From NCBI GenBank assembly GCA_963666365.2, contig CAXXNF010000002.1:2144001-2208000 (forward strand): DNA of 64,000 nt, given 5' to 3'. The DNA is from Syntrophales bacterium. Its GTDB lineage: Bacteria > Desulfobacterota > Syntrophia > Syntrophales > UBA2210. The notes beneath the pieces are model-generated. The model did not search any database. It had not been told where the DNA came from and saw only the letters and a list, made by a program, of their open reading frames with translations. This document shows positions 20,130-40,857 of this stretch, one piece after another; positions within the stretch are counted from its first letter, which is position 1, and each line of letters starts with the position of its first letter. The position numbers and the translations under genes are program-made.

Positions 20130-20315
20130 ATGAAGACAGCCTGTTTTACAAAAGCGTTAACCGTAGCCTTTACCGAAGACATTTACCTGAAAATCAAGGA
20201 AATAACCGATGAGAAAAATATTTCCATGGGGGAATGGGTGCGAATCGCAGCGGAAAGGGAATTGAACAATAACGAGTATATCAAATGTATTTCTGGAGGA
20301 ATCAAGCATGACTAA
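20130..20315 (+). CDS. Ribbon-helix-helix-like small regulator
   Basis: beta-helix-helix pattern; paralog of 37413-37592; overlaps the primase start. Confidence 0.6.
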   Translation: MKTACFTKALTVAFTEDIYLKIKEITDEKNISMGEWVRIAAERELNNNEYIKCISGGIKHD

Positions 20316-22647
20316 ATTTATATCAGACAAAGAGACTTTCATTACAATGGCATCTGATTTTTTCAACGAACTTTTTGAACCAGCGTTTAATAGCGAGTGC
20401 GGTGATATCGAAATCAGGACATTCAAACCATCACCTCAACAGAACTTTTACAAATCGGAGCATGAAGCCGCTGAAAGAGCGTTCGATTTATGCAACCGGG
20501 GCATTGATGTGTATTTCGGAGTGAATCCGCGAACCGGCAATGCTGGAAAAAAAGAGAACATCCAGTATGTGAGTGCATTCCACGCGGAAATCGATTACGG
20601 CGAAACAGGTCATAAAAAAGATACACCCCATAAGACGTATGAAGACGCCTTAAATGCTATAGAATCCTTCAACCCGGAACCAACCATTATTATCCACAGC
20701 GGCGGCGGCTTTCATTGTTACTGGGTATTGAGCAATCCCGTAAAGGTCGATGCCATTGGATGTCAGATTCTGGAAAGCATCAATAAAAATCTGTCGGAAA
20801 AACTGGGAGGCGATCGGGGAACACAGGACATTACACGGGTGCTGCGAGTGCAAGGTACATACAATTTTAAAATAATGGACAATCCGCGACCAGTAATGCT
20901 CATATCCAACAGTCATAAGAAGTATGAGTATGAGGAGTTCAGGACATTCATACCCACCGAACATGCAGTCGCAAGCGGCATACCAGACACCGGCAAAAAT
21001 CTTCAGACACACCGCCCAGTTGCGCATGTTGAGCCCTCACAACTGTCGTTTGATATAGAGAACTTGCCTGTTTCGAGTAAAATAAAGTCGCTTATTAAGA
21101 ATGGCAATGACGGCAGGTATACATCAAGAAGCGAAGCAGACATGGCGGTGGTAATTGCTCTGGTGAATAAAGGGGTGAATACAGAAAATATCAAACAGAT
21201 ATTTCTCAACTGTGGCATCGGTGAAAAATACAGGGAGCATCGCTCAAAAGACGACTATTTGAACCATACCATTGAACAGGCAAAAAAATACTCTGATCTT
21301 ACCGAAGAAGAGAGGACAGACCCGCTTTTCATTACAAACGCGCTTTTAAAAACAGATGGGAGATATCGACTCAACATTCTGAAATTTCAAGAATACATGG
21401 TCAGAAAATACCGTATAGTCATTCTTGACCGTGAACAGGCAATGTTCCGCTATACAGGTAAATGCTATGAACAGATAACAGATAAGGCCCTTAATAATCT
21501 CTGCCAGAGGGAACTGAAGGACCATAGAAATCTCTTTTCCCGGTCGTCTCTTTCAGAATTCATCCATTACGCCGTGGGAGAAACACTGGCCGACAGCGAG
21601 AAGGTGAAGCAGGAGCAGGTCAATTACCTGACAATGCAAAACGGCATCTATGAATTTGACCGTGGGAGATTATTGCCCCGTACCCCAAAAATCTTCACAA
21701 CGAATCTTCTGCCTTTTGAATACGACCCCAATGCTAAATGCACCAGATTCATACAGTTTCTTAATGAAGTATTCGAAGGTGAGCAGGAAAAGATCCGTTT
21801 CGTACAGGAAGCTGTGGGGTACATCTTTCACAAGTCCATTCCCACCCCTGCGGTCTTTTTCCTTATCGGGTCAGGCAGCAACGGCAAGTCGGTTTTCATT
21901 AACACCATATCCAGCCTGGTAGGAAAGGAGAATACAAGCAACGTCAGCTTCAACCTCCTTTCCGACGAGACCTACATTCTTGAGCTTTATCAGAAGATGA
22001 TCAACATCTCCGGTGAAACCCCTCATGCAAAAACGATCGATACAGATGTGATTAAAGCGGTGACGGCTGGCGATTGGGTTACGGGAAGAGAGCTTTACAA
22101 ACCGCCCATGAAATTCCGACCTTTTGCTAAAAGCTTTTTAGCTATGAATAATCTGCCCACAATAAAAGATACCTCGCATGGTATGTGGCGGAGAATATGG
22201 GTTGTCACTTTTCCCAAAAAATTTGAAGAACATGAGATGGATCGACAGCTGGAAGAAAAACTCACGAAGGAGTTATCAGGCATCTTTAACTGGGCGCTTG
22301 AGGGGTACAGTAGATTAAAAGGAAACGGTTTTTCTTTACAGGAAAGCGATTCCATGAAACTGGAGAAGAAGTCTTACCGGATAAGTGCCGACAGTGCCAG
22401 AGAATTCATTAGTGAATATCTTGCTCCTTCGAGTGATGAAAATGCACGAATTAAACTTAGTGTGCTCTATAACCACTATAAAGACTGGTGTAATTCACAA
22501 AGATCAAAAGATGTTAAAAATAAAAATGAATTCAAAATAATACTTGAAGATATGAAATATTATGTAGACAACTCTTCAAAAGACAATAATCAAGTTCATG
22601 CATTCAATGTTGTTTTTAAAGAGAATATAAAAAATATTATTGTATAA
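20308..22647 (+). CDS. P4-family primase-helicase (RepB-like primase + D5/SF3 helicase)
   Basis: HSGGGFHCYW, RVLRVQGTYNFK, SRSEAD, Walker A GSGSNGKS, MNNLP, GMWRRI. Confidence 0.9.
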   Translation: MTKFISDKETFITMASDFFNELFEPAFNSECGDIEIRTFKPSPQQNFYKSEHEAAERAFDLCNRGIDVYFGVNPRTGNAGKKENIQYVSAFHAEIDYGETGHKKDTPHKTYEDALNAIESFNPEPTIIIHSGGGFHCYWVLSNPVKVDAIGCQILESINKNLSEKLGGDRGTQDITRVLRVQGTYNFKIMDNPRPVMLISNSHKKYEYEEFRTFIPTEHAVASGIPDTGKNLQTHRPVAHVEPSQLSFDIENLPVSSKIKSLIKNGNDGRYTSRSEADMAVVIALVNKGVNTENIKQIFLNCGIGEKYREHRSKDDYLNHTIEQAKKYSDLTEEERTDPLFITNALLKTDGRYRLNILKFQEYMVRKYRIVILDREQAMFRYTGKCYEQITDKALNNLCQRELKDHRNLFSRSSLSEFIHYAVGETLADSEKVKQEQVNYLTMQNGIYEFDRGRLLPRTPKIFTTNLLPFEYDPNAKCTRFIQFLNEVFEGEQEKIRFVQEAVGYIFHKSIPTPAVFFLIGSGSNGKSVFINTISSLVGKENTSNVSFNLLSDETYILELYQKMINISGETPHAKTIDTDVIKAVTAGDWVTGRELYKPPMKFRPFAKSFLAMNNLPTIKDTSHGMWRRIWVVTFPKKFEEHEMDRQLEEKLTKELSGIFNWALEGYSRLKGNGFSLQESDSMKLEKKSYRISADSAREFISEYLAPSSDENARIKLSVLYNHYKDWCNSQRSKDVKNKNEFKIILEDMKYYVDNSSKDNNQVHAFNVVFKENIKNIIV

Positions 22648-27955: not shown

Positions 27956-28130
27956 GACGGTATTTTTTTGCCGGCTTTCAAGGAAACCTGAGGGCCTTTA
28001 ATTAAGTATACTGTTTGAATGCATAAGTAAGAAAGATTGCAGGAAACCTCCAGGCGGGTCACAATGTTTGTAAATGCAAACTGCTGGGTCGAGATGAGTT
28101 CGCCCAGAAATGAACCACAAGGAGGTTTCC

Positions 28131-29162
28131 ATGGACAGATCTTACTACATAGGGTTGGATATTCACAAGAAGGTAATCGCATATTGTATCAAGGCCCTTG
28201 ACGGATCCTTGATTGATCAGGGAAAGATAGGGGCAGACAGGCTGGCCTTGGGAGTATGGGTGAAGGGTCTGCCGGGACCCTGGATAGGAGCTATGGAAGC
28301 GACCCTCTTCACCGGATGGGTGTACGACTTTTTGAAACCCCATGCCGTTGCCCTGAAGGTGGCTCATCCAGCGATGCTCCAGGCCATAACAGTCGCCAAG
28401 AAGAAGAATGATCGAGCCGATGCGGAAAAGATAGCCGATCTACTGCGGGTGAATCTTCTGCCTGAATGCCACATGCTCTCGGAAGAGATTCGCGAACTGG
28501 GGAGAATATTACGATATCGCAACCACATAGTTCGGACGGCAGTGAAGATTCAGAACAAGATGTCGGGCCTGCTCATGGAGGTTGGGGTCAGCTACAGCAA
28601 AAAACGCCTGCACGGCAATAAATACTTTCATGAGCTACTCGAACGGGTCGATGAGATTCCTCCTTCGGTTAATGAGCTTCTTCAGTTGAGCCGTTCCAGC
28701 TATGAGATGTTTCGCTCTTTCCAGAAGCGGCTTGTTGAGACGCTTCGTACCGACAGCCTGATCAGTGGGCGGGTGCATCGTCTCATGACCATCCCCGGAG
28801 TAGGCGAGATAACAGCTCTCACTTGGATATTAGAGATTGGCGATCCTGACCGATTCTCATCCATTCGGAAGGCAGTCAGTTACTGTGGTTTGTGCAGCGC
28901 GCAAAGGGAATCAGCGGGGAAGGAACAGCGAGGTCCCATCTCCAAGAAGAGGAACAAGCACCTGCAAACCATGCTCATTGAGGCAGCAAAGGTTGCGCCG
29001 CACTGGAACGAACAACTGGCAATCGTACATGAACGAGAATTGAAGAAGGGTAACCGGAACAGGGCAACGCTTGCCGTTGCGAGAAGGCTTGTTGCCTACA
29101 TGTTGGCCGTTGACAGGAAAGGAGCAGATTTCAATCTGCCCTCTGAAATACGGGCAGCATAA
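28131..29162 (+). CDS. IS110-family recombinase/transposase
   Basis: YIGLDIHKK, AMEAT, KNDRADA (DEDD), TIPGVG, QRESAGK. Confidence 0.95.
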   Translation: MDRSYYIGLDIHKKVIAYCIKALDGSLIDQGKIGADRLALGVWVKGLPGPWIGAMEATLFTGWVYDFLKPHAVALKVAHPAMLQAITVAKKKNDRADAEKIADLLRVNLLPECHMLSEEIRELGRILRYRNHIVRTAVKIQNKMSGLLMEVGVSYSKKRLHGNKYFHELLERVDEIPPSVNELLQLSRSSYEMFRSFQKRLVETLRTDSLISGRVHRLMTIPGVGEITALTWILEIGDPDRFSSIRKAVSYCGLCSAQRESAGKEQRGPISKKRNKHLQTMLIEAAKVAPHWNEQLAIVHERELKKGNRNRATLAVARRLVAYMLAVDRKGADFNLPSEIRAA

Positions 29163-30349: not shown

Positions 30350-32122
30350 CCTAAATTCCCGGCTTAATGTAACGAGGTTGGCGGGGCGATCCCCATTGCC
30401 TCATAAAGTTCGATTTGTTTCTTTGTCACTTCACCTACGCGAAGTTCATACCCCGGGTACTCAAAGCATTCAATGATGTCCAGTTCATCCAGAAGCTCAT
30501 GCATCGTATATTTTTTGAAAAGATTTCCATCTTGCATCTTCTTTTTGAGATAAGAAAGAAAAATAAGCGCGATAAATTCCACAAACAGCTTGCCGTCCAG
30601 ACTTTGATCGGAGGACACCGCCATGCGGTTGAAATTCAGTCGCTCTTTCAGATTTCCGAAGGCCTTTTCCACAAGATCCTTGTTCCGGTATATTTCCAGG
30701 GCTGCGATAGGTTCCCTGACCTCGTTGCTGAGTAACACAAAAAATCCATAATTCTTTCGTGCATCAAGAAGAGCATCCTCTCTGGCAATAACCTTTGTCC
30801 CTCTTACCGGGGTGGTGGTGACATCAAAATATTTGGCGTACAGCCTGTCGTGTTCCGGAAGGGTTGCGCCGCCTTCCAATTCCTCCTGCAGACGACAAAG
30901 CAGGGCGTTGAAGTTCTTTTCATCCTCCAATGCCCGTTCACTGTTAAAATAGAGGTGCATATACATCCGGCGTTTTCCCTTAAGAATATCGCCCTTGTAA
31001 GGACGCTCCTGAGAATAGTCCCATTCTATCTTCGTGGTGCAGGCATAAAGATCATGTTTCTGATTATAGTGTGTCCAGGTACGGAGTGAATCGCGCACAT
31101 TATCCAGTTCGGTCTTTACGAATTTCAACGACTTCTTTGCGGCAATCAGGAATTTCAAATGATTCCGGTACAGGTCGTTGATATTGTCCTCGCTGTAGAA
31201 TCCCCTGTCCATAACCAGCTTGATCTTGTCGTACCCAAAGAAATCGATGTCAGCCAGAAGGTTCTTCACTGTCTTCACATCGGGAATGTTGCCTGCAAGT
31301 TTTCGGTAGTAAAAAGGAAGATTGGATTCCTCCCCGAACAATAACGCGAGATTGATCTGCGGAAGCGGCTCATGATCCTTGTTCATCCCGTATCTGACCT
31401 GGCTTAAGCATCTGGAATAGCTCGATATGGAGGTCGTATCATAGGCCCAGTACTCTTTCTCGACTCGCCGTCTTCCCTGCAGCCGGAAAAACCGATTCTT
31501 GTCGTCTTCGGTAATAGATGCGAACAACTCACTGCTCCTCTGAGAAGGGATGTTTCTGCCGTAAGGATGCCTATGCGTGGCTGCCCATTTCGGAAAACGG
31601 CTCAAGGGGTTCCTGTCCTCCATGATGAGGTAGTATGCCGTGGACAAAATCTGTTTGTATGTGCCGGGAAAGCATTTTTTCAAATCCGCGGCAATCCCGA
31701 GCTTCTCGCCGATGGCGTCAAAAAGGTATGTTGCCCCGTAAAAACTGCGGGATACATTCTCGATAGGGACCGGACCTCTTTTATGGACTTTGTCATGATT
31801 GCCGGGATCAGTGGCAACCACCCTTTTTCTGGTCGGGATGATCTCCTTTGTCTCGGGATCAACCCGTCCGATGCATCTACGTGTGGCACGAGACTGCTTT
31901 TTCTCTTTATCCCAGTAGGATAGCGATTCATAGGCATAGGTAATTCCCGTCTGCTTGCTGGTCTGATACACAATCGCCGCCATTGAGCACCCCCCCCTTT
32001 TTTATCATCGTTACATTATGCTTAACATGTAACGAGACTCAAATCAAGGAAAAATGCTCCGATCTATTAATGTTTATTCGGCTTTTATGCCTTTCATCGT
32101 TACATTATACCGGGAAGGCAGG
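30350..32122 (-). mobile_element. IS1634-family element (transposase 30364-31983)
   Basis: DDE motifs YDTTSISS, MDRGFYS, VEKAF; ends CCTAAATTCCCGG / CCGGGAAGGCAGG; TATTAT duplication at 30344-49 and 32123-28. Confidence 0.92.
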
Positions 32123-32620: not shown

Positions 32621-32784
32621 TTATGCGGACCCGTATAGACCACCACGGCAAATAACACAGTAGCATGTAAGTAATTATAGATATTGTGATATATGACGTA
32701 AGTGATTTGACTAAACAGGATGGTTTTATAAGGGGAAAATTGAGGTTCTGCGGTTTATACGGACCCGTCTAGACAATGTTAGGG
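32621..32784 (+). other. Putative integron attI-like site, no intI nearby
   Basis: 20-bp direct repeat TTATRCGGACCCGTMTAGAC (32621, 32755), then core GTTAGGG (32778) 11 nt before the cassette ATG. Confidence 0.55.
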
Positions 32785-32795
32785 GTTAGAGCAAT

Positions 32796-34205
32796 ATGGA
32801 AACAGATTACTTACACGCATTAGCAAATATAAAATTTGAAGTTGATTGTTGCCTAATTGTCCTTACCCAAGAGGGTGAAATCGATAATCCTCGAATCTAC
32901 AAAGGCCCAGGTACAATAATTCAAAATGACGAAAATTCATTTTCTGTCAAAATTTTTTGTGAAGGAAAATTAGATATTAAAGAAGTGTTTGGCAAAATTA
33001 ATCGTCTGACGCCTGGAAAATTAATCGAAAGGACAAACTACTACTCTCTTGAAGCATCTGACTATGCTGGGAATACATGGACTGCAAACTCCATAATGCC
33101 TAATACAAATGGTGGTATGGACTGTGACGGTTTTTTGGTTTCTGGCAATTTCACTAGGTTATTTTGCCACAGAAAAGAACACTATGAATACAAAGGAATG
33201 ACATTAAAATTATTTTACAAAGGAAAATATAAAATCCCATGTAATACGGTTACAAAATCAAAGCACATAATCGGAACTGAGGATAGAGGAACAAGTAGCA
33301 AATTGAATGTTGCTCAGTTTGAAATTGAAAATATTGAATTCGAAATCTTATCAGACGATGACAGGCTTATTGTTTATCTCTACTCTCAGAGCGAAAATCT
33401 AACAAAAGTTACCGCCCAGAGAATACATGAGGCTCTTCAGTTTGTATTGGTTAACTTAGAGCCTTGGGATATTTTGTTAATTCAAAAAAGTAACATCCAA
33501 GAAACCATCTTTCGAACTGTTCCTCCGACATCTCGGAAATCAAGAGTTCAGCCACCATTGCATTTTGATTCAGTGGATAGAGGTGGGTATGTATGGAATA
33601 TGTTCGAATTATTTCTAAAGTATTCATTGCCGTACCAAGAGGCAGATTGGCACCCATTGTATGCACAAGTTCATAAAGTTATAGAGTCAGGGAAAGCATC
33701 CATTGAAGCACATGCTTTAACATTAGCCGTTTCAATAGAAGGACTGCTTAAATTGTGCTTTCGCGAAGTTGCTCTCCCAGATGATGAGTTCAAGAATAAA
33801 GTTAAAAAAGCAACTGATGAAATTAACAACAGTGGCATCGATAGCAATCTAAAAATAAGGCTGCAAGGCGCACTTGGAGCAATGAAAAGCCCCAGAGCCA
33901 AGGATAGACTTTATAGCCTGCAGCAATCGGGAATAGTTGAGGAACGACTTGTTACTTCATGGAGCAACATGAGAAATAGTTCTGCTCATTCGGATTCCAT
34001 AGAGTTATTAGAAATACAAAATTTTTTAAATGATTGTAGTGCAATGTGTGTACTTTTTAACCAACTAATTTTTCACGTAATTGGCTATAGGGGAGAATAT
34101 ACAGACTATAGCGTTTATGGTTATCCGAAGAAAAAATATGAACCGATAGAAACCCTAACAAATATAGGATTAGTCCCGAGTCGAGGAACGAGCGCTCGGA
34201 ACTAA
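32796..34205 (+). CDS. ApeA-like HEPN protein carried as a gene cassette
   Basis: C-terminal RNSSAH (RxxxxH) after LAVSIEGLL helix; low GC; flanked by GTTAGGG/CCCTAAC. Confidence 0.65.
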   Translation: METDYLHALANIKFEVDCCLIVLTQEGEIDNPRIYKGPGTIIQNDENSFSVKIFCEGKLDIKEVFGKINRLTPGKLIERTNYYSLEASDYAGNTWTANSIMPNTNGGMDCDGFLVSGNFTRLFCHRKEHYEYKGMTLKLFYKGKYKIPCNTVTKSKHIIGTEDRGTSSKLNVAQFEIENIEFEILSDDDRLIVYLYSQSENLTKVTAQRIHEALQFVLVNLEPWDILLIQKSNIQETIFRTVPPTSRKSRVQPPLHFDSVDRGGYVWNMFELFLKYSLPYQEADWHPLYAQVHKVIESGKASIEAHALTLAVSIEGLLKLCFREVALPDDEFKNKVKKATDEINNSGIDSNLKIRLQGALGAMKSPRAKDRLYSLQQSGIVEERLVTSWSNMRNSSAHSDSIELLEIQNFLNDCSAMCVLFNQLIFHVIGYRGEYTDYSVYGYPKKKYEPIETLTNIGLVPSRGTSARN

Positions 34206-34218
34206 TCCATGGTTCAAG
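34153..34218 (+). other. attC-like site 1
   Basis: CCCTAAC ... GGATTAGTCCCGAG / CTCGGAACTAATCC stem ... GTTCAAG. Confidence 0.6.
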
Positions 34219-34465
34219 AAGCCGCGGGCTATAGGGGAAAAGGTTCGATAATCCTGGGATGGTTTTGAAGATTGAATCAGGTAAAAGACCGGAAGAAGAT
34301 CTTTGAAAACATGGTCAATCGAAAGTAAAGGGATTCATCGTCATGAGAAATCCTGATTAAAAGGGTTAAAAGCCTGCCTTTGGGCAGACGGGTGCTATAG
34401 AGCATTCCCTAGTATAGATCATCTCTCGTGGCCTGAAAAAAATCATTGTCTTGCAGATATATTTT

Positions 34466-35560
34466 CTATCCCGAAGGACCCCATCGGGGCATAGGACTTA
34501 CAAAGGCAATAAACCTTAACGCCTGTCCACAGCAGGGACATTTAATCCCTTCCCCTTTATGTTCGGGTGTGTTGGGTAAGAGATCACGGATGACATCGTG
34601 GATTAATGAAATGAGTTCACGCAGCTGTTCGATTGAGAAGGAACTGTTTGAATTGAGAAAGCCGTAGTATCGTATTTTCATAAGCCCTTTCGGCAGGACA
34701 TGCTGAAGAAATCTTCGGATAAACTCCACGGCATCAAGCTTCATGGTTTTCCATGTCTTCTTCCGACGATCTTTATATCGAAATGTAATGACGCCGTTTT
34801 CAATATTTTTAATGCGGTTATTAGAGATGGCGACGCGGAAGACATACCGTGAAAGGTAGCGCAGAGAGTTTTGCCCCGTTCCCACGGCCTGACTATCGAC
34901 AACCCATTGTTGCGTCCAGAGGTCGGGATGAATGGTATCAAAGAGTCTGGCCTTTTTCATTGCATCCCGGAACTTGGCCCGAAAGATGATTGCCAGGGGT
35001 TGTGTGTGCACAAAGAGATCTTGTCTTGAGGATACCCATTGATCTCCTTTTTCGGATACTGCGCCGCCCGGAATAACCAGATGGAGATGAGGGTGATACT
35101 GAAGCATGTTTCCCCAGGTATGGAGCACGGCCAGATAACCGATTCGTGTTGAGCCGACAAACCGCTTGTCTTTCGCTAATTTCCTTAGCGCTGCATGAGC
35201 GCATGAGAACATGGCCGCATAAACGATCTTTTGATGGGATCTGGCAACTTCCCGAAGGCCTTGCGGCAGCGTTATGGTTAAGAGGAAATAATGGGTGGGC
35301 AAAAGCTGTTCCATCTGTTTGTGAAGCCATTGATCCCTTTTATCATGCTGACAGTTCGGACAGTGGCGATTCCCGCAGCAACAGGGAATGGAGTGTATGG
35401 CGCCACAGTCATGACAGCCATACACAATCGTTCCGAAAGAACCACTGCGGCAATCAGTGATATCCTGCATGGCTTTTTTATGAATGTGCGGCATTCGGTC
35501 GCCATGCAGCGCCAGATAGTGCGGCCCATATATCTGGAAGATTTTTTGAATAGCGCTCAT
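34466..35560 (-). CDS. IS91-family (Y2 HUH) transposase with Zn-binding N-domain
   Basis: CHDC...CGNRHCPNC, LHTWG, HPHLH, YLSRY, EFIRRFLQHVLPKG, IRYYG. Confidence 0.95.
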   Translation of the reverse strand: MSAIQKIFQIYGPHYLALHGDRMPHIHKKAMQDITDCRSGSFGTIVYGCHDCGAIHSIPCCCGNRHCPNCQHDKRDQWLHKQMEQLLPTHYFLLTITLPQGLREVARSHQKIVYAAMFSCAHAALRKLAKDKRFVGSTRIGYLAVLHTWGNMLQYHPHLHLVIPGGAVSEKGDQWVSSRQDLFVHTQPLAIIFRAKFRDAMKKARLFDTIHPDLWTQQWVVDSQAVGTGQNSLRYLSRYVFRVAISNNRIKNIENGVITFRYKDRRKKTWKTMKLDAVEFIRRFLQHVLPKGLMKIRYYGFLNSNSSFSIEQLRELISLIHDVIRDLLPNTPEHKGEGIKCPCCGQALRFIAFVSPMPRWGPSG

Positions 35561-36432
35561 GACAACACCCCCTGCATCACCTGTGAGACCCTAGTATGGG
35601 AATCGGTTTGGGCCTGAGTGGTCACATGCAGATACACCATGGTGCTTTGCAACGTTTTGTGGCCCAATATTTTTTGGACATGCCGTATGGGGATATTGGC
35701 TTCCAGCAGGTGCGTTGCATAGGCATGGCGAAAGACATGGGGATGAATATGTTTTTTAAACCCCAGACGCTTCAATGTGCGTTGCAGAACCCCTTGGACG
35801 CCGCTGTCGCTGACATGTGCATTTGCAAATTGAGCATCTTTGCCTCCGTTGTGACCCAGGGCGGGAAAGATCCATTTTGGATTGCGGTGGCTTTTATAGT
35901 ACTCACGTAAAGCCAAGAGGGTGATTTTCGGTAAGGGGACTGTCCGATCCAGTGCCCCTTTCCCCGCATGGATGTGAACCAGACCCCGATCGGAGAGAAT
36001 GTCCCCGACTTGCAGCGTCGTTGCTTCCCTGAGACGAAGTCCCAGGGAATATAAGGTCAGGTAAAAGGTATGACTCTGTAACGTGGGAAGGGCATAAATG
36101 ATCTTTCTCACTTCCTGAAGGCTTAAGATAGTGGGAAGCGTCTGGTCACGCTTCCACTTGATTTCATTGAAAATGTTCCAGGACCGGACAAGCGTCCTGG
36201 TGAAAAAATGCTGGATTCCGGCGTAACTGATTCGTAACGATGCAGCGCTCCAGCCGAATTCACTTTGGCAACAAAGCCAATATTGACGCAGTTCCTCTTC
36301 GGTGATATCTTCTAGCGGCTTGTTGTAAAAGCGTTGCAAGCGCAATACGGAACTTACATACGACTGAATACTTCTTTTTGCATAACCGGCTAACTGGAGA
36401 TCCTCCTTGAAACGTTTGATCACATGGCTCAT
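35557..36432 (-). CDS. Tyrosine recombinase partner of the IS91-like transposase
   Basis: GLRLRE, GKG, HVFRHAYATHLLE, LGH, TMVYLH; start MSHVIK; no IntI-specific insertion recognised. Confidence 0.9.
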   Translation of the reverse strand: MSHVIKRFKEDLQLAGYAKRSIQSYVSSVLRLQRFYNKPLEDITEEELRQYWLCCQSEFGWSAASLRISYAGIQHFFTRTLVRSWNIFNEIKWKRDQTLPTILSLQEVRKIIYALPTLQSHTFYLTLYSLGLRLREATTLQVGDILSDRGLVHIHAGKGALDRTVPLPKITLLALREYYKSHRNPKWIFPALGHNGGKDAQFANAHVSDSGVQGVLQRTLKRLGFKKHIHPHVFRHAYATHLLEANIPIRHVQKILGHKTLQSTMVYLHVTTQAQTDSHTRVSQVMQGVLS

Positions 36433-36562
36433 GGTATCTTCCTTTCTTCTTTTAACCTTGTCGGGTAGAAGATACCGACCTGCAAGCCGGGATGAAGATA
36501 CCATGACTTATTTGATCAAACAATGATGGTTGAAAATCATTAATCTGCCGCGTAGCGGCTTA

Positions 36563-36643
36563 CTTGAACAACGCCATCAACTCGGACGTGCAAAAGCGCC
36601 GCTTCGCTCTGCTTTTGCACGCCAGTTATGGCGAGCGTTACCA
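36563..36643 (+). other. attC site 2
   Basis: CTTGAAC-AACGCCATCAAC...GTGCAAAAGC/GCTTTTGCAC...GTTATGGC-GAGC-GTTACCA: canonical attC stem with an extrahelical base. Confidence 0.8.
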
Positions 36644-37412
36644 ATTACGAAAAGAAACATACTATCACACGATCTCTATTAGCTTCGTTGACTACAGGAA
36701 GGATCAGAGGGTGTCATAATCCCGGAAACCGACATTCACAAACTTGTGCCTTTCAACCTGTACTCAATGCTCCTGCCGGAGCGGTCGTGGTGCGGCTTTG
36801 TCCTTGAAGTCAGGTATGATAATAGGAACAGCGACAATCTCTATTTCGGGGAGTTATGTGATCTGAAAATAACTGCCTGGTCTAATTTGAACTTTCACAT
36901 ATTATGCGCATATTGTCCTTAATACCACAGAGATCCCGGTATCACTCATGAGCCACGTGCAGGAAACCGCGGCGCACGAGATAACATAATCCCGCAGTCC
37001 CCTGAATGGGTATGCTGCAAAGCACATGATTCCCGCTCAATAAGACACCGTCTGTTCTACGCCATAACAGATAAAGTTCCGTGTGCACGGCGGCTATAGA
37101 CTCCCTCCCTCGAAACAAACTGTCCTCTCGGCATATACATTCAAAAGAGATTTGCAAGAACGCCCGAGATAACCGCATTTCGCGATGTAAAGGGGTTTTT
37201 CTTCGCATACCAAGGCGGTTATTGCGAGTTGCCGTCAAAAACCTTGCGGGAAGTCTTTTTCAAGGGTTTATTCCCCACAATCCACACATACGCCCGTCAG
37301 TTTGTTTCCCTTCATGACCCTCAAACAAAAATTTTCCGATCTGCGGAACACACCTGAACAAATATATGTATTGGAAAAGATTCAAATCTTAATCATTAAG
37401 GAGGAAACAGTA

Positions 37413-38164: not shown

Positions 38165-40857
38165 GATATCTGCGGGAGTTGCTTATGGAGATGGAGACGC
38201 TCTCGCAGATCGTAACCGTACGACCAACTCATCTTTCGCTTGAACGCACATTGGATTATAGCTTCCCGTCATGAACACATTTCATGATTGGAGGATGCCC
38301 TATGACACAACAAGAACGCACCGCCCACTGGTCGGCCATCGTAGAGCGGCAGATCGCAAGCGGGATGAGCGGTCTGGCCTGGTGCCAGATGCATCAGATC
38401 AATACGGCAAGTTTCTACTCCTGGCGCCGGAAACTCACTGAACCGCAAGGACAACAGGGATTTATCGAACTTGCATCCTCGACGGCCGACTATGCCGGCA
38501 TTCGCATTTGCATGGGGCCGCTTCTTTCCATCGAAGTGGAACGCGGCTTCGATCCCGTTACCCTGCGCACCGTTATTGAAACGCTTCATAATGGTTCCCC
38601 ATGTTCGGCCTGACAGCATCGGCACGCATCTATCTTTATCGCAGCCCCTGCGACATGCGCAAGTCCTTCGACGGCCTGTGCGGCATTGTCCGCGCCGAAC
38701 TTAGCGCCGATCCCCTTTCGGGATCACTCTTCGTCTTCGTCAACCGGCGGCGGAACATGGTGAAGCTCCTGTACTGGGACAGCGACGGCATGGCCATCTG
38801 GCTGAAACGTCTGGAGCAGGGGTCCTTCGTGCTGCCTTCCCGGCAGTCCCGCGACGGTCATATCGAGCGCCGGGATCTGGCCATGCTCCTTGAGGGAATC
38901 GTGCCGAAAAAAGTGGGAAAACGGTACAAAATATGTGCATAAAAAATAATATAAACACTTGACATTATTATAGTTATGTGCTATACGCCCGCTCATGATA
39001 TTGACGGAAGCACAAGAGATTATCGACCGAAAAGATGCTGCCTGGATTCTGGAATTTGCCGCCCAAAAGGATGCCCAGATCGAAGCGCTTACCCAGAAGC
39101 TCGAATCCGCCCAGCGCCAGTTGACCACCCTGCAGCATCAGATGGAACAGCTGCTGAAACGGCTCTACGGCCGCAAGTCCGAAAAGATCAACCCCGGTCA
39201 GCTGATGTTCGACGACATGGTGCTTCAATCATTAGAGCAGAATGCGGCGGTGAAAGCACAGTTCGAAGACGCTTCTGCCACAGAGACTGTCAAGAAGCCC
39301 CGCAAGGCCTCCCGGCATCACGGCCGGGTTCCCATTCCGGAGCATCTCGAACGGGTGGAGATTCTGCTGGACGTGCCCGAGGATGAAAAGATCGATGCGG
39401 ACACGGGCGCACCCCTGAAGGTCATTTCCGTGGAAGTCTCGGAGAAGCTGGAATACCGGCCGGGGAGACTGATCGTCAACGTCTACAAGCGGCCCCAGTA
39501 TGCGCTGCCGGAGGCATCGGAATCTACCGCCGGCGTCATCGCCGCCTCGCTGCCCGATCACCCCATCGCCAAGTGCAAAGCCGACGTGGGGCTGCTTTCT
39601 CATCTGATCGTCAGCAAGTACGCCGATCATCTGCCTCTCTACCGACAGAACAGCATTCTGGAGCGGGAAGGAGTGGACATTCCCCGGGCCACCCAAACCA
39701 GCTGGCTCATGCAGGTCTATGAGAGCATTCGTCCCTTGGAAACAGTGCTTCAAAAGGCCGTCCTTGAGAGGGACGTGCTCTTTACCGACGATACGCCCGT
39801 TCCTCTGCAGGTCAAGGGAAACGGCAAGGTAAAGAAGGCCCGTCTCTGGGTCTATCTGCGGGGCGGTCCGGGACCGCCGCTGACGGCCTATGACTTCTCC
39901 ATTGATCGGAGCAAGACGCGCCCACTGGAGTATCTCAATGATTACCAGGGGTACGTCCATGCCGACGCCTACGGCGGCTACGACGAACTTTTCAAAAAAG
40001 AAGAGATTATCGAAGTGGGTTGCTGGGCCCATACCAGACGGAAGTTCGACGAGGCGGTTTCATCGCGTCCTCAAGAGGCCACGGACATCCTTGCCCGCAT
40101 CGCCCGGCTCTATCACGAGGTGGAGACCCCCTGTGCCGAGATGACGCCCGAGGAGCGGCGCCGTTTCCGGCAGGCGCATGCAACGCCGCTGCTTGAGGGA
40201 ATCTTTGCAAAGATTGAGGAACTGAGGCCCCGGACGACGCCCTCGGAGCCGTTGCGGACGGCCATCAACTACGCCCTGAATCAGCGGGAGGCGCTCTGCC
40301 GCTATCTGAAAGACGGACGGTTAAGACCCGACAACAACCTGGCGGAAAACGCCATTCGGCCCATAGCGGTAGGTCGAAAAAACTGGCTCTTCGTGGGCAG
40401 CGAACGGGGCGGCCGGGCGGCGGCCCTTTATATGGGTCTCGTTCAATCTTGCAAAAACTGCGACGTCAACCCCTGGGAGTACTTTGACGACATGCTTCGG
40501 CGGATCATGAGCCATCCCGTAAACCGCCTGCGGGAACTGCTTCCCGATCAGTGGAAGCCTGTGCCCAGGGATGAACGGGGCCTGATCATCCAGGGAAAAC
40601 AATAATCAGTGCACCGTATTCCGGCGGTTGAATCCCGTAATCATATTATCAAAGAGCACCGGCTGTACCGGTTTTAGGTACAGCGTACTTCATGTAAAAT
40701 TCTTTTGCTATATGAGTTGGTCGTACGCTTACCGCAGATCCTGCTTTTCCGGCAAGTACGGTCATATGCTTACGGAAATAACAAAGCCTCAACGGTTGAT
40801 CATGGAAAGGTTTGAGGTCAACCACCGGCATAGTTATAAATTGAACGGGATTTTAGG
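38165..40857 (+). pseudogene. IS1634-like 3' remnant split by IS66
   Basis: Flanks read LRELLMEMETLSQ / SGKYGHMLTEITKPQRLIMERF, then an IS1634-type end CGGGATTTTAGG. Confidence 0.6.
38212..40732 (+). mobile_element. IS66-family element (tnpA about 38302-38613, tnpB 38601-38942, tnpC 38995-40605)
   Basis: IRs GTAACCGTACGACCAACTCAT / ATGAGTTGGTCGTACGCTTAC; 8-bp TSD CGCAGATC; DMRKSFDGL, GCWAHTRRKF, NNLAENAIR. Confidence 0.97.

Follow-up and report, generated by a model that had tools for sequence, protein, structure and literature searches.

What brings a transposase gene and a tyrosine recombinase gene to an integron-type recombination site (attC) in a genome with no integron integrase above the profile cut-off? 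We addressed this question in a 64,000-nucleotide stretch, hereafter the window, of a Syntrophales bacterium (phylum Desulfobacterota; GenBank assembly GCA_963666365.2, contig CAXXNF010000002.1, positions 2,144,001 to 2,208,000). A first-pass annotation had described an IS91-like transposase and a tyrosine recombinase at 34212..36643, arranged as an integron cassette. Sequence comparison indicates that window 34160-36569 represents a single copy of an IS91-family (HUH-Y2) insertion sequence of 2.4 kb that carries a Xer-like recombinase gene. Its target is the attC of a solitary integron-type cassette, entered on the top strand directly behind the AAC of the R'' box and with no target duplication (Table 1).

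Boundaries, genes and ends of the element

The boundaries were set with a second copy in the host genome, at G000:C2:1070889-1073322 (locus L002; G000 denotes the host, and other G and L codes denote other genomes and loci of the survey described below). Across 2410 bases the two copies show 3 differences, and comparison of their flanks places the identity from about 34160 to 36569, not at the bounds first assigned. From this comparison, the hairpin at 34167-34208 lies inside the element, CTTGAAC forms its last seven bases, and the hairpin at 36570-36643 lies outside. The hairpin originally called attC1 is thus the element's own end, common to copies and fragments in unrelated flanks. By the same comparison, the site to which that name was given is a hybrid of the target R'' and the element hairpin, and it scored 8.7 bits (E 8.9) in our own attC model (see below). 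Similarly, CTTGAAC had been taken for the R'' of the downstream attC; it is the element terminus, and CCCTAAC at 34153-59 serves as R'' for that attC.

The second copy interrupts an OmpA-like gene, whose N- and C-terminal parts lie on either side and are still in frame. Its flanks, ATC and CAC, show no repeat; the rejoined target had no hairpin (z +1.0), and this copy has no attC on either side. The pair of copies indicates recent movement of the element in a genome without an integron integrase above cut-off. Five further fragments in the host genome retain the hairpin end and differ in their internal breakpoints, while no solo right end was found in the host assembly. Two fragments of 34-36 bases (L006 2217-2252 and L011 1501-1534) are limited to the spacer of the element end and, from its hairpin, the first arm with the loop; both break at an identical point (...GAACGAG). 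By cumulative GC skew, the + strand of the element is on the C-rich strand in 6 of 7 host copies and fragments, a set too small for a conclusion (n = 7, two of them ~500 bp apart). Separately, window 36695-36800 and C2:1674421-1674526 share 83% identity; the latter is next to a decayed element copy, but on the opposite strand.

Contigs from sequencing runs X1, X2 and X4 fuse 34224 to 36544, that is, the hairpin end to the last 26 element bases. The depth of this joint was 144, 358 and 161, respectively, versus 4-9 in the flanks, and a miniature form with this joint was not found in the assembled genome. It could be a contig artifact at the inverted repeat, or else an end-to-end derivative present at high copy number elsewhere in the samples.

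Profile searches bore out the initial identification of the two genes. TnpA scored 366.8 bits against NCBIfam NF033538 (cut-off 125), which places it in the IS91 family, and matched Pfam Y2_Tnp (195.9 bits) and the N-terminal zinc domain Zn_Tnp_IS91 (88 bits); its match to ISCR clade Ia was weak (25.8 bits). The motifs HPHLH (156-160) and YLSRY (235-239; Y235 and Y239 of a YxxxY motif) are intact, and we take them to be the catalytic HUH motif and the two tyrosines. IntY has a full R-K-H-R-H-Y set (R157, K182, H256, R259, H282 and Y291), and its best-scoring NCBIfam models belong to the Xer and integron-integrase families. Its match to the integron-integrase model TIGR02249 reached 141.3 bits, below the cut-off of 265, and skipped model positions 182-203; in an alignment, a 27-residue gap in IntY lies opposite the extra-domain region of the integron integrase of G015. 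This extra domain of integron integrases (IntI) recognizes folded attC. Judged by these comparisons, IntY is not an integron integrase and is without the IntI-specific additional domain. The two genes overlap by 4 bases on the minus strand, and intY is predicted to be translationally coupled to tnpA. Distant relatives (~42% identity) still keep intY intact and coupled to tnpA.

Table 1. Coordinates of the element, its target and other features of the window
Feature	Position	Strand	Basis or remark
Mobile element, 2410 bp	34160..36569	.	bounds by comparison with the second copy, G000:C2:1070889-1073322
tnpA, IS91-family HUH-Y2 transposase, 364 aa	34466..35560	-	Pfam, NCBIfam, motifs
intY, Xer/IntI-like tyrosine recombinase, 315-aa open reading frame (ORF)	35557..36504	-	profile matches, catalytic residues
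Element end downstream of tnpA, putative origin (ori) end	34160..34211	+	spacer AAATAT, hairpin arms 34167-80/34195-208, spacer ATG
GTTCAAG AAGCCGC, internal repeat complementary to right terminus	34212..34225	+	covaries with terminus in relatives
Right, putative terminus (ter) end, CTGCCGCGTAGCGGCTTACTTGAAC	36545..36569	+	stem GCCGC/GCGGC at 36547-51/36555-59
GTTAGGG, likely R' remnant at start of interrupted cassette	32778..32784	+	complementary to CCCTAAC at 34153
Cassette ORF, 469 aa	32796..34205	+	0 Pfam, 0 NCBIfam families; stop inside element hairpin
CCCTAAC, R'' box of target attC, split from the rest	34153..34159	+	pairs with R' GTTA when rejoined
Target attC remainder: L'', loop, L', R' GTTACCA	36570..36643	+	z -4.0; consensus hairpin; 70.3 bits, the site being itself a seed of the attC model
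Integrase, 447 aa	9807-11150		low-GC island
D5-type primase	20308-22647		low-GC island
IS110-family element	28110-29162		low-GC island
IS4-like element	30364-31983		low-GC island
IS66 element	38284-40605		low-GC island

The end downstream of tnpA (34160-34211) is conserved at 7 left ends in the host genome and in relatives with different stem sequences; its hairpin folds with z -3.1 and has a mismatch and no bulged bases. At the opposite end, the GC stem is located ten bases from the right terminus. The 7-mers GTTCAAG (34212-34218) and CTTGAAC (36563-36569) are perfect complements, as noticed on the first pass. The AAGCCGC that was said to continue both ends is present at 34219-25; at the other end it is the complement, GCGGCTT (36555-61), that precedes the 7-mer, with an extra A at 36562.

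The host genome also has a second two-gene element type (L053 8263-10781, equivalent to G000:C2:438262-440780), with a further copy in L052 at 99.3% identity. It encodes a 312-aa recombinase (215 bits to TIGR02249) and a 394-aa Y2 transposase; its ends read ATTTA, hairpin, GTTGGAC TAAGCCGC ... GCGGCTTA GTTCAAC, and it is preceded by GAAC.

All versions of the element ends have a common order: a 5-6-base spacer, a hairpin that starts with AGG(A/T)T and finishes with A(A/T)CC, a 3-5-base spacer, a GTT-initial 7-mer and AAGCC, and, at the far end, a GC stem and then ~10 bases finishing ...AAC. The stems diverge in sequence yet pair in the host element, G059, G300, a relative on an Escherichia coli plasmid (see below) and the second host type. 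The terminal and internal 7-mers are CTTGAAC and GTTCAAG in the window, G278, G026 and G059 (7/7 complementary), CTTGAAC and GTTCATG in G300 (6/7), GTTCAAC and GTTGAAC in the E. coli plasmid (7/7), and GTTCAAC and GTTGGAC in the second host type (6/7). Two 7-mer positions have therefore changed on both sides. When joined, the two ends of the element form an extended stem resembling that of attC (dG -26.0, z -6.1).

Target site and recurrence among relatives

When the element is removed, CCCTAAC joins AACGCCATCAACTCGGAC...GCGAGCGTTACCA. By script, the rejoined site (34153-59 plus 36570-36642) folds into a hairpin (dG -23.2, z -6.4) that has TAAC and GTTA base-paired to each other. Seven related sites (that of the window, three beside element copies in G026 and G037, C2:1792556, and those in G059 and G097) have a common hairpin, with compensatory changes at 11 of 21 pairs and unpaired bases on the 5' arm. 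By these structural criteria, 34153-59 together with 36570-36643 is an attC site. In relatives, such sites lead into a ribosome-binding site and an ATG of the same strand; hence the + strand corresponds to the attC top strand, and the element genes face against the cassette direction.

We searched the window with our own attC model, R1, and found a single attC and no further site; since R1 was built from 7 sites of one subfamily and is not a curated model, this means one site of that kind. The earlier description of genes facing against an array holds for their direction relative to the cassette, no array having been found in the window with R1. The 469-aa ORF and the split attC fit one cassette, because GTTAGGG lies 12 bases upstream of the ATG and complements CCCTAAC. 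This complementarity had been recognized on the first pass for the preceding cassette, and the two words are present at 32778 and 34153. However, no attC hairpin was found upstream of GTTAGGG at 32778 (z +1.4 and +0.8), and GTTAGGG occurs 4 times in the window versus 4.9 expected. The stop codon of the ORF (34203-34205) lies in the element hairpin, and in the rejoined site the frame would, by eye, extend ~85 codons through attC. The insertion therefore appears to have replaced the 3' end of the cassette gene. No integron integrase in the host genome scored above cut-off (best 141 bits versus 265).

To follow the element beyond the window, we surveyed 401 sampled genomes of the phylum, host included, with the reversed right end as a control. 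The 25-base right end was found at 25 sites in 16/401 genomes, with 0 matches for the reversed control; together with the covariation of the 7-mers in relatives, this argues that the 7-mer pairing is not due to chance. A left-end pattern matched 5/401 genomes, which shows weaker conservation of this end compared with the right one. Pattern searching for the internal repeat recovered one close relative only, and searching with TnpA alone recovered 3 loci only.

Of the 15 left junctions that are clear (7 in the host, 2 in G026, 3 in G015, and one apiece in G278, G059 and the E. coli plasmid), 14 have AAC immediately before the element, the exception being ATC in L002. R''-like bases often stand before the AAC (GCCT, CCCT, GCCC or CGCT). 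The fourth base before the element is T, C or A, not G, whereas the second host type has GAAC.

For the right flanks, the 24 bases after ...AAC were compared with the 24 bases before a GTT located 50-140 bases downstream. By arm complementarity, 11 of the 25 flanks passed at an empirical P <= 0.021, with ~0.5 expected by chance, and 7 passed at P <= 0.01 (versus 3000 random GAAC sites). The other 14, including the OmpA-like site and five without a GTT in range, failed, although at least two of these (L058 and L080) are attC-like by eye. Arm complementarity replaced an energy-only hairpin test, which gave no separation from controls, as long spans gain energy. Overall, the flanks support a strong association of the element family with attC hairpins. 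Insertion at sites unrelated to attC, which the first pass had named as evidence against its own reading, is seen in part: the 14 failing flanks include that of the second host copy, whose OmpA-like target has no hairpin.

Individual loci illustrate the range. The right flanks at 3 sites in G026 and 1 in G037 are attC-like and of the same family as the window site. In G015, which has a complete integron, an element end lies in the attC after gene 243-524, a cassette ~2.3 kb from a 436-bit integron integrase and part of a minus-strand gene run up to that integrase. Two copies in G300 lie outside attC-like sites, both after ...CAAC. G026 also has two gene-less derivatives of the element, 3.2 kb apart (L049, G026:C64, 4700-5315 and 7950-8564). 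In these, the internal 7-mer is 543 bp before the right terminus, and each derivative is bordered by an R''-like ...TAAC on one side and the remainder of an attC on the other. We also considered an AAC duplication on insertion, which was suggested by the AAC before both boundaries and by a shorter spacer at C2:1792556. This was rejected because the aadA1 attC (see below) gains no base; in addition, the three bases that follow the right end differ from site to site in the set of 25.

The clearest junctions are outside the phylum, in a class 1 integron on the E. coli IncC plasmid NZ_LT985243.1 (L112 10934-13294; IntY 36% identical), where the order is cmlA1-aadA1-element-qacEdelta1-sul1. With a slash marking the element boundary, the left junction reads ...TAA TGTCTAAC/AAATAAGGATAGG... 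and the right junction ...GCGGCTTCGTTCAAC/AATTCGTTCAAGCC...GCGTTAGAT. The element lies between GTCTAAC and AATTC of the aadA1 attC with no base gained or lost, the flanks being what we take to be the intact aadA1 attC sequence. Among 72,556 plasmid records, the full-length element was present in 1, NZ_LT985243.1; a 254-base piece, 94.9% identical, is on a plasmid of Shewanella sp. ANA-3.

Candidate enzymes for insertion

We reasoned that this is an IS91-family attC-homing element whose transposase performs the insertion, as in IS91, and we consider this reading probable. The layout, with no duplication, a short target word beside the tnpA-downstream end and AAC before both boundaries, appears to match that of IS91. 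Whereas the comparisons above show the identity, bounds, target position, orientation and recurrence of the element, we infer the acting enzyme, the strand used and the ori/ter polarity as follows. The transposase would cut one strand 3' of AAC at both boundaries (...TAAC/AAATAT and ...CTTGAAC/), with ...TAAC at the hairpin end supplied by the target and ...CTTGAAC being the element's own, and the cut strand would be joined 3' of AAC in the target. An attC may be favored because its conserved AAC lies at the base of a hairpin extruded in single-stranded form. The element hairpin and the two complementary 7-mers re-create something resembling an attC at either junction, which explains the cassette-like appearance of the unit; in this respect the first-pass idea of a cassette mimic was apt, as the inserted unit is flanked by two attC-like sites. 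The polarity is hinted at by the five solo hairpin-end fragments, set against no solo right end, and by the GC stem near the right terminus, and the varied lengths of the hairpin-end fragments suit aborted rolling-circle copies, again as a hint. Insertion into the unstructured target at L002 also speaks for the transposase, as does the recent movement in a host with no integron integrase above cut-off.

Several observations weigh against this reading. First, IntY must have a role, given that it is intact and coupled to tnpA in distant relatives, and the transposase model assigns it none. Second, AA/C or AAC/ is the cut site of integron integrases too, so the junction geometry does not separate the enzymes. 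Third, all strand-readable attC insertions are on the top strand, which a bare rule of AAC beside a hairpin fails to predict, because the bottom strand offers the same. Fourth, a recombinase site would equally explain the attC-like fold of the joined ends and the covariation of the 7-mers. Finally, contigs of 4 sequencing runs (3 samples) contained neither an empty-site joint nor a circle joint, rare forms being invisible to contigs.

Alternatively, IntY integrates the element: the joined ends of a circle would fold as an attC-like hairpin and exchange a single strand with the folded top strand of a target attC at AA/C. The circle would perhaps be a single strand produced by the HUH transposase, with the junction CTTGAAC - AAATAT - stem - ATG - GTTCAAG. 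Integron integrases acting on folded attC and XerCD acting on single-stranded CTX phage DNA are parallels to such a reaction. We regard this alternative as unlikely, while noting how much of the data it would accommodate: the circle junction folds well; the 7-mers covary among the window, plasmid and second-type elements, and the hairpin stems differ yet remain paired; the junctions are compatible with an AA/C cut, with only the C shared in L002; IntY has the complete catalytic set, its best models are of the Xer and integron-integrase families, and its gene stays coupled to tnpA at ~42% identity; and the orientation at attC sites is strict. On the other hand, IntY lacks the additional domain (~27 residues) that integron integrases carry, the target at L002 does not form a hairpin and 14/25 right flanks fail the attC test, the element hairpin has a mismatch and no bulged bases, and the solo hairpin-end fragments of variable length are better suited to aborted rolling-circle copies. 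A minus-strand cassette with a 3' attC and G/TT crossovers was also tried; its geometry fits, but the target cut would be in R'' and not R', and we keep it solely within the IntY alternative.

The two enzymes may also act in sequence, with the HUH transposase peeling off a single-stranded circle and IntY recombining its attC mimic with the top strand of a folded attC, a scheme we hold to be possible but doubtful. If true, it would be the mirror image of integron recombination and a self-contained entry into cassette arrays without an integron integrase, and read-through at the ter end could carry downstream cassettes.

That an integron integrase moved 34213-36643 between two attC sites as a true cassette or a mimic of one, a reading built on the first-pass bounds, is very improbable: GTTCAAG and CTTGAAC are complementary like a cassette R'/R'', two attC-like sites flank the inserted unit, and an ISShvi3 beside attC gives "a new gene cassette structure" according to PMC9229058, but the near-identical copies share 34160-36569 and not 34213-36643, the second copy is without attC on either side, the host genome is without an integron integrase above cut-off, the left hybrid site scores poorly in the attC model, and the attC downstream is not carried along by the element, unlike the 3' attC of a cassette bounded by G/TTRRRY.

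Neighborhood, significance and comparison with known systems

The element is located within a low-GC island (window 9807-50000), other features of which are listed in Table 1. The TnpC of the IS66 element equals, in length and Pfam scores, the IS66 transposase ORF at L053 5810-7420. Elsewhere in the host genome, attC-like sites outside the window (12 hits in all) include 7 at C2:1825723-1854243 (29 kb); those at C2:423040 and 437727 are near the second element type, and the intact attC at C2:1792556 is ~0.8 kb from a 38-residue integron-integrase fragment (C2:1791625-1791738). From these hits, the clusters resemble cassette arrays whose integrase has been lost.

Cassette arrays are a main store of adaptive and resistance genes, and the kind of element described here recurs across phyla, including in a clinical class 1 integron. 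Each insertion turns one attC into two attC-like sites, with a possible change in the units open to excision by an integrase. It also gives the upstream gene a different 3' end, and it puts beside cassettes a rolling-circle element from a family in which one-ended transposition is known. Homing to attC would also give the unexplained recombinase of two-gene IS91 members a testable role.

The element has in common with IS91, IS801 and IS1294 an HUH-Y2 transposase with an N-terminal zinc domain. As in the IS91 family, there is no target duplication (see the split aadA1 attC and the L002 flanks), and a short target word stands beside the tnpA-downstream end; this AAC, present at 14 of 15 junctions, may correspond to the fixed tetranucleotide of IS91, GAAC or CAAG. 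The window element differs from IS91 in its extra tyrosine recombinase gene, in its attC-like terminal hairpin and in its target, the AAC of the attC R'' box, entered in one orientation. ISfinder lists IS91 members with an upstream integrase gene, for example ISShvi3; the two-gene layout is the same as in the window element. IS608 and other IS200/IS605 elements have subterminal hairpins, are cleaved 3' of a short word at both ends and insert 3' of a target word without duplication; IS608 uses a Y1 enzyme, in contrast to the Y2 enzyme here. By analogy with IS608, the GTT...AAC complementarity might serve as guide pairing. ISCR elements likewise have IS91-related transposases linked to integrons; to our knowledge, they have a single gene and no reported insertion within attC.

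IS1111-attC elements (IS110 family) and group IIC-attC introns resemble the window element in homing to attC in a fixed orientation. Their enzymes are unrelated (a DEDD transposase, and a reverse transcriptase with a ribozyme, respectively), and their insertion position is different. Both are mentioned in PMC9229058, where ISShvi3 adjoins an attC in a Shewanella integron. In the literature searched, covered in part, this passing mention was the only one of such an element, and no description of an attC/AAC target rule was found. The IS200/605 element beside an attC cluster without an integrase, in a halophile integron paper (PMC7923331), is not of this kind. As an IS91-family member that homes to attC and brings a Xer-like recombinase of its own, the window element would be a third kind of attC-homing element, after IS1111-attC elements and group IIC-attC introns.

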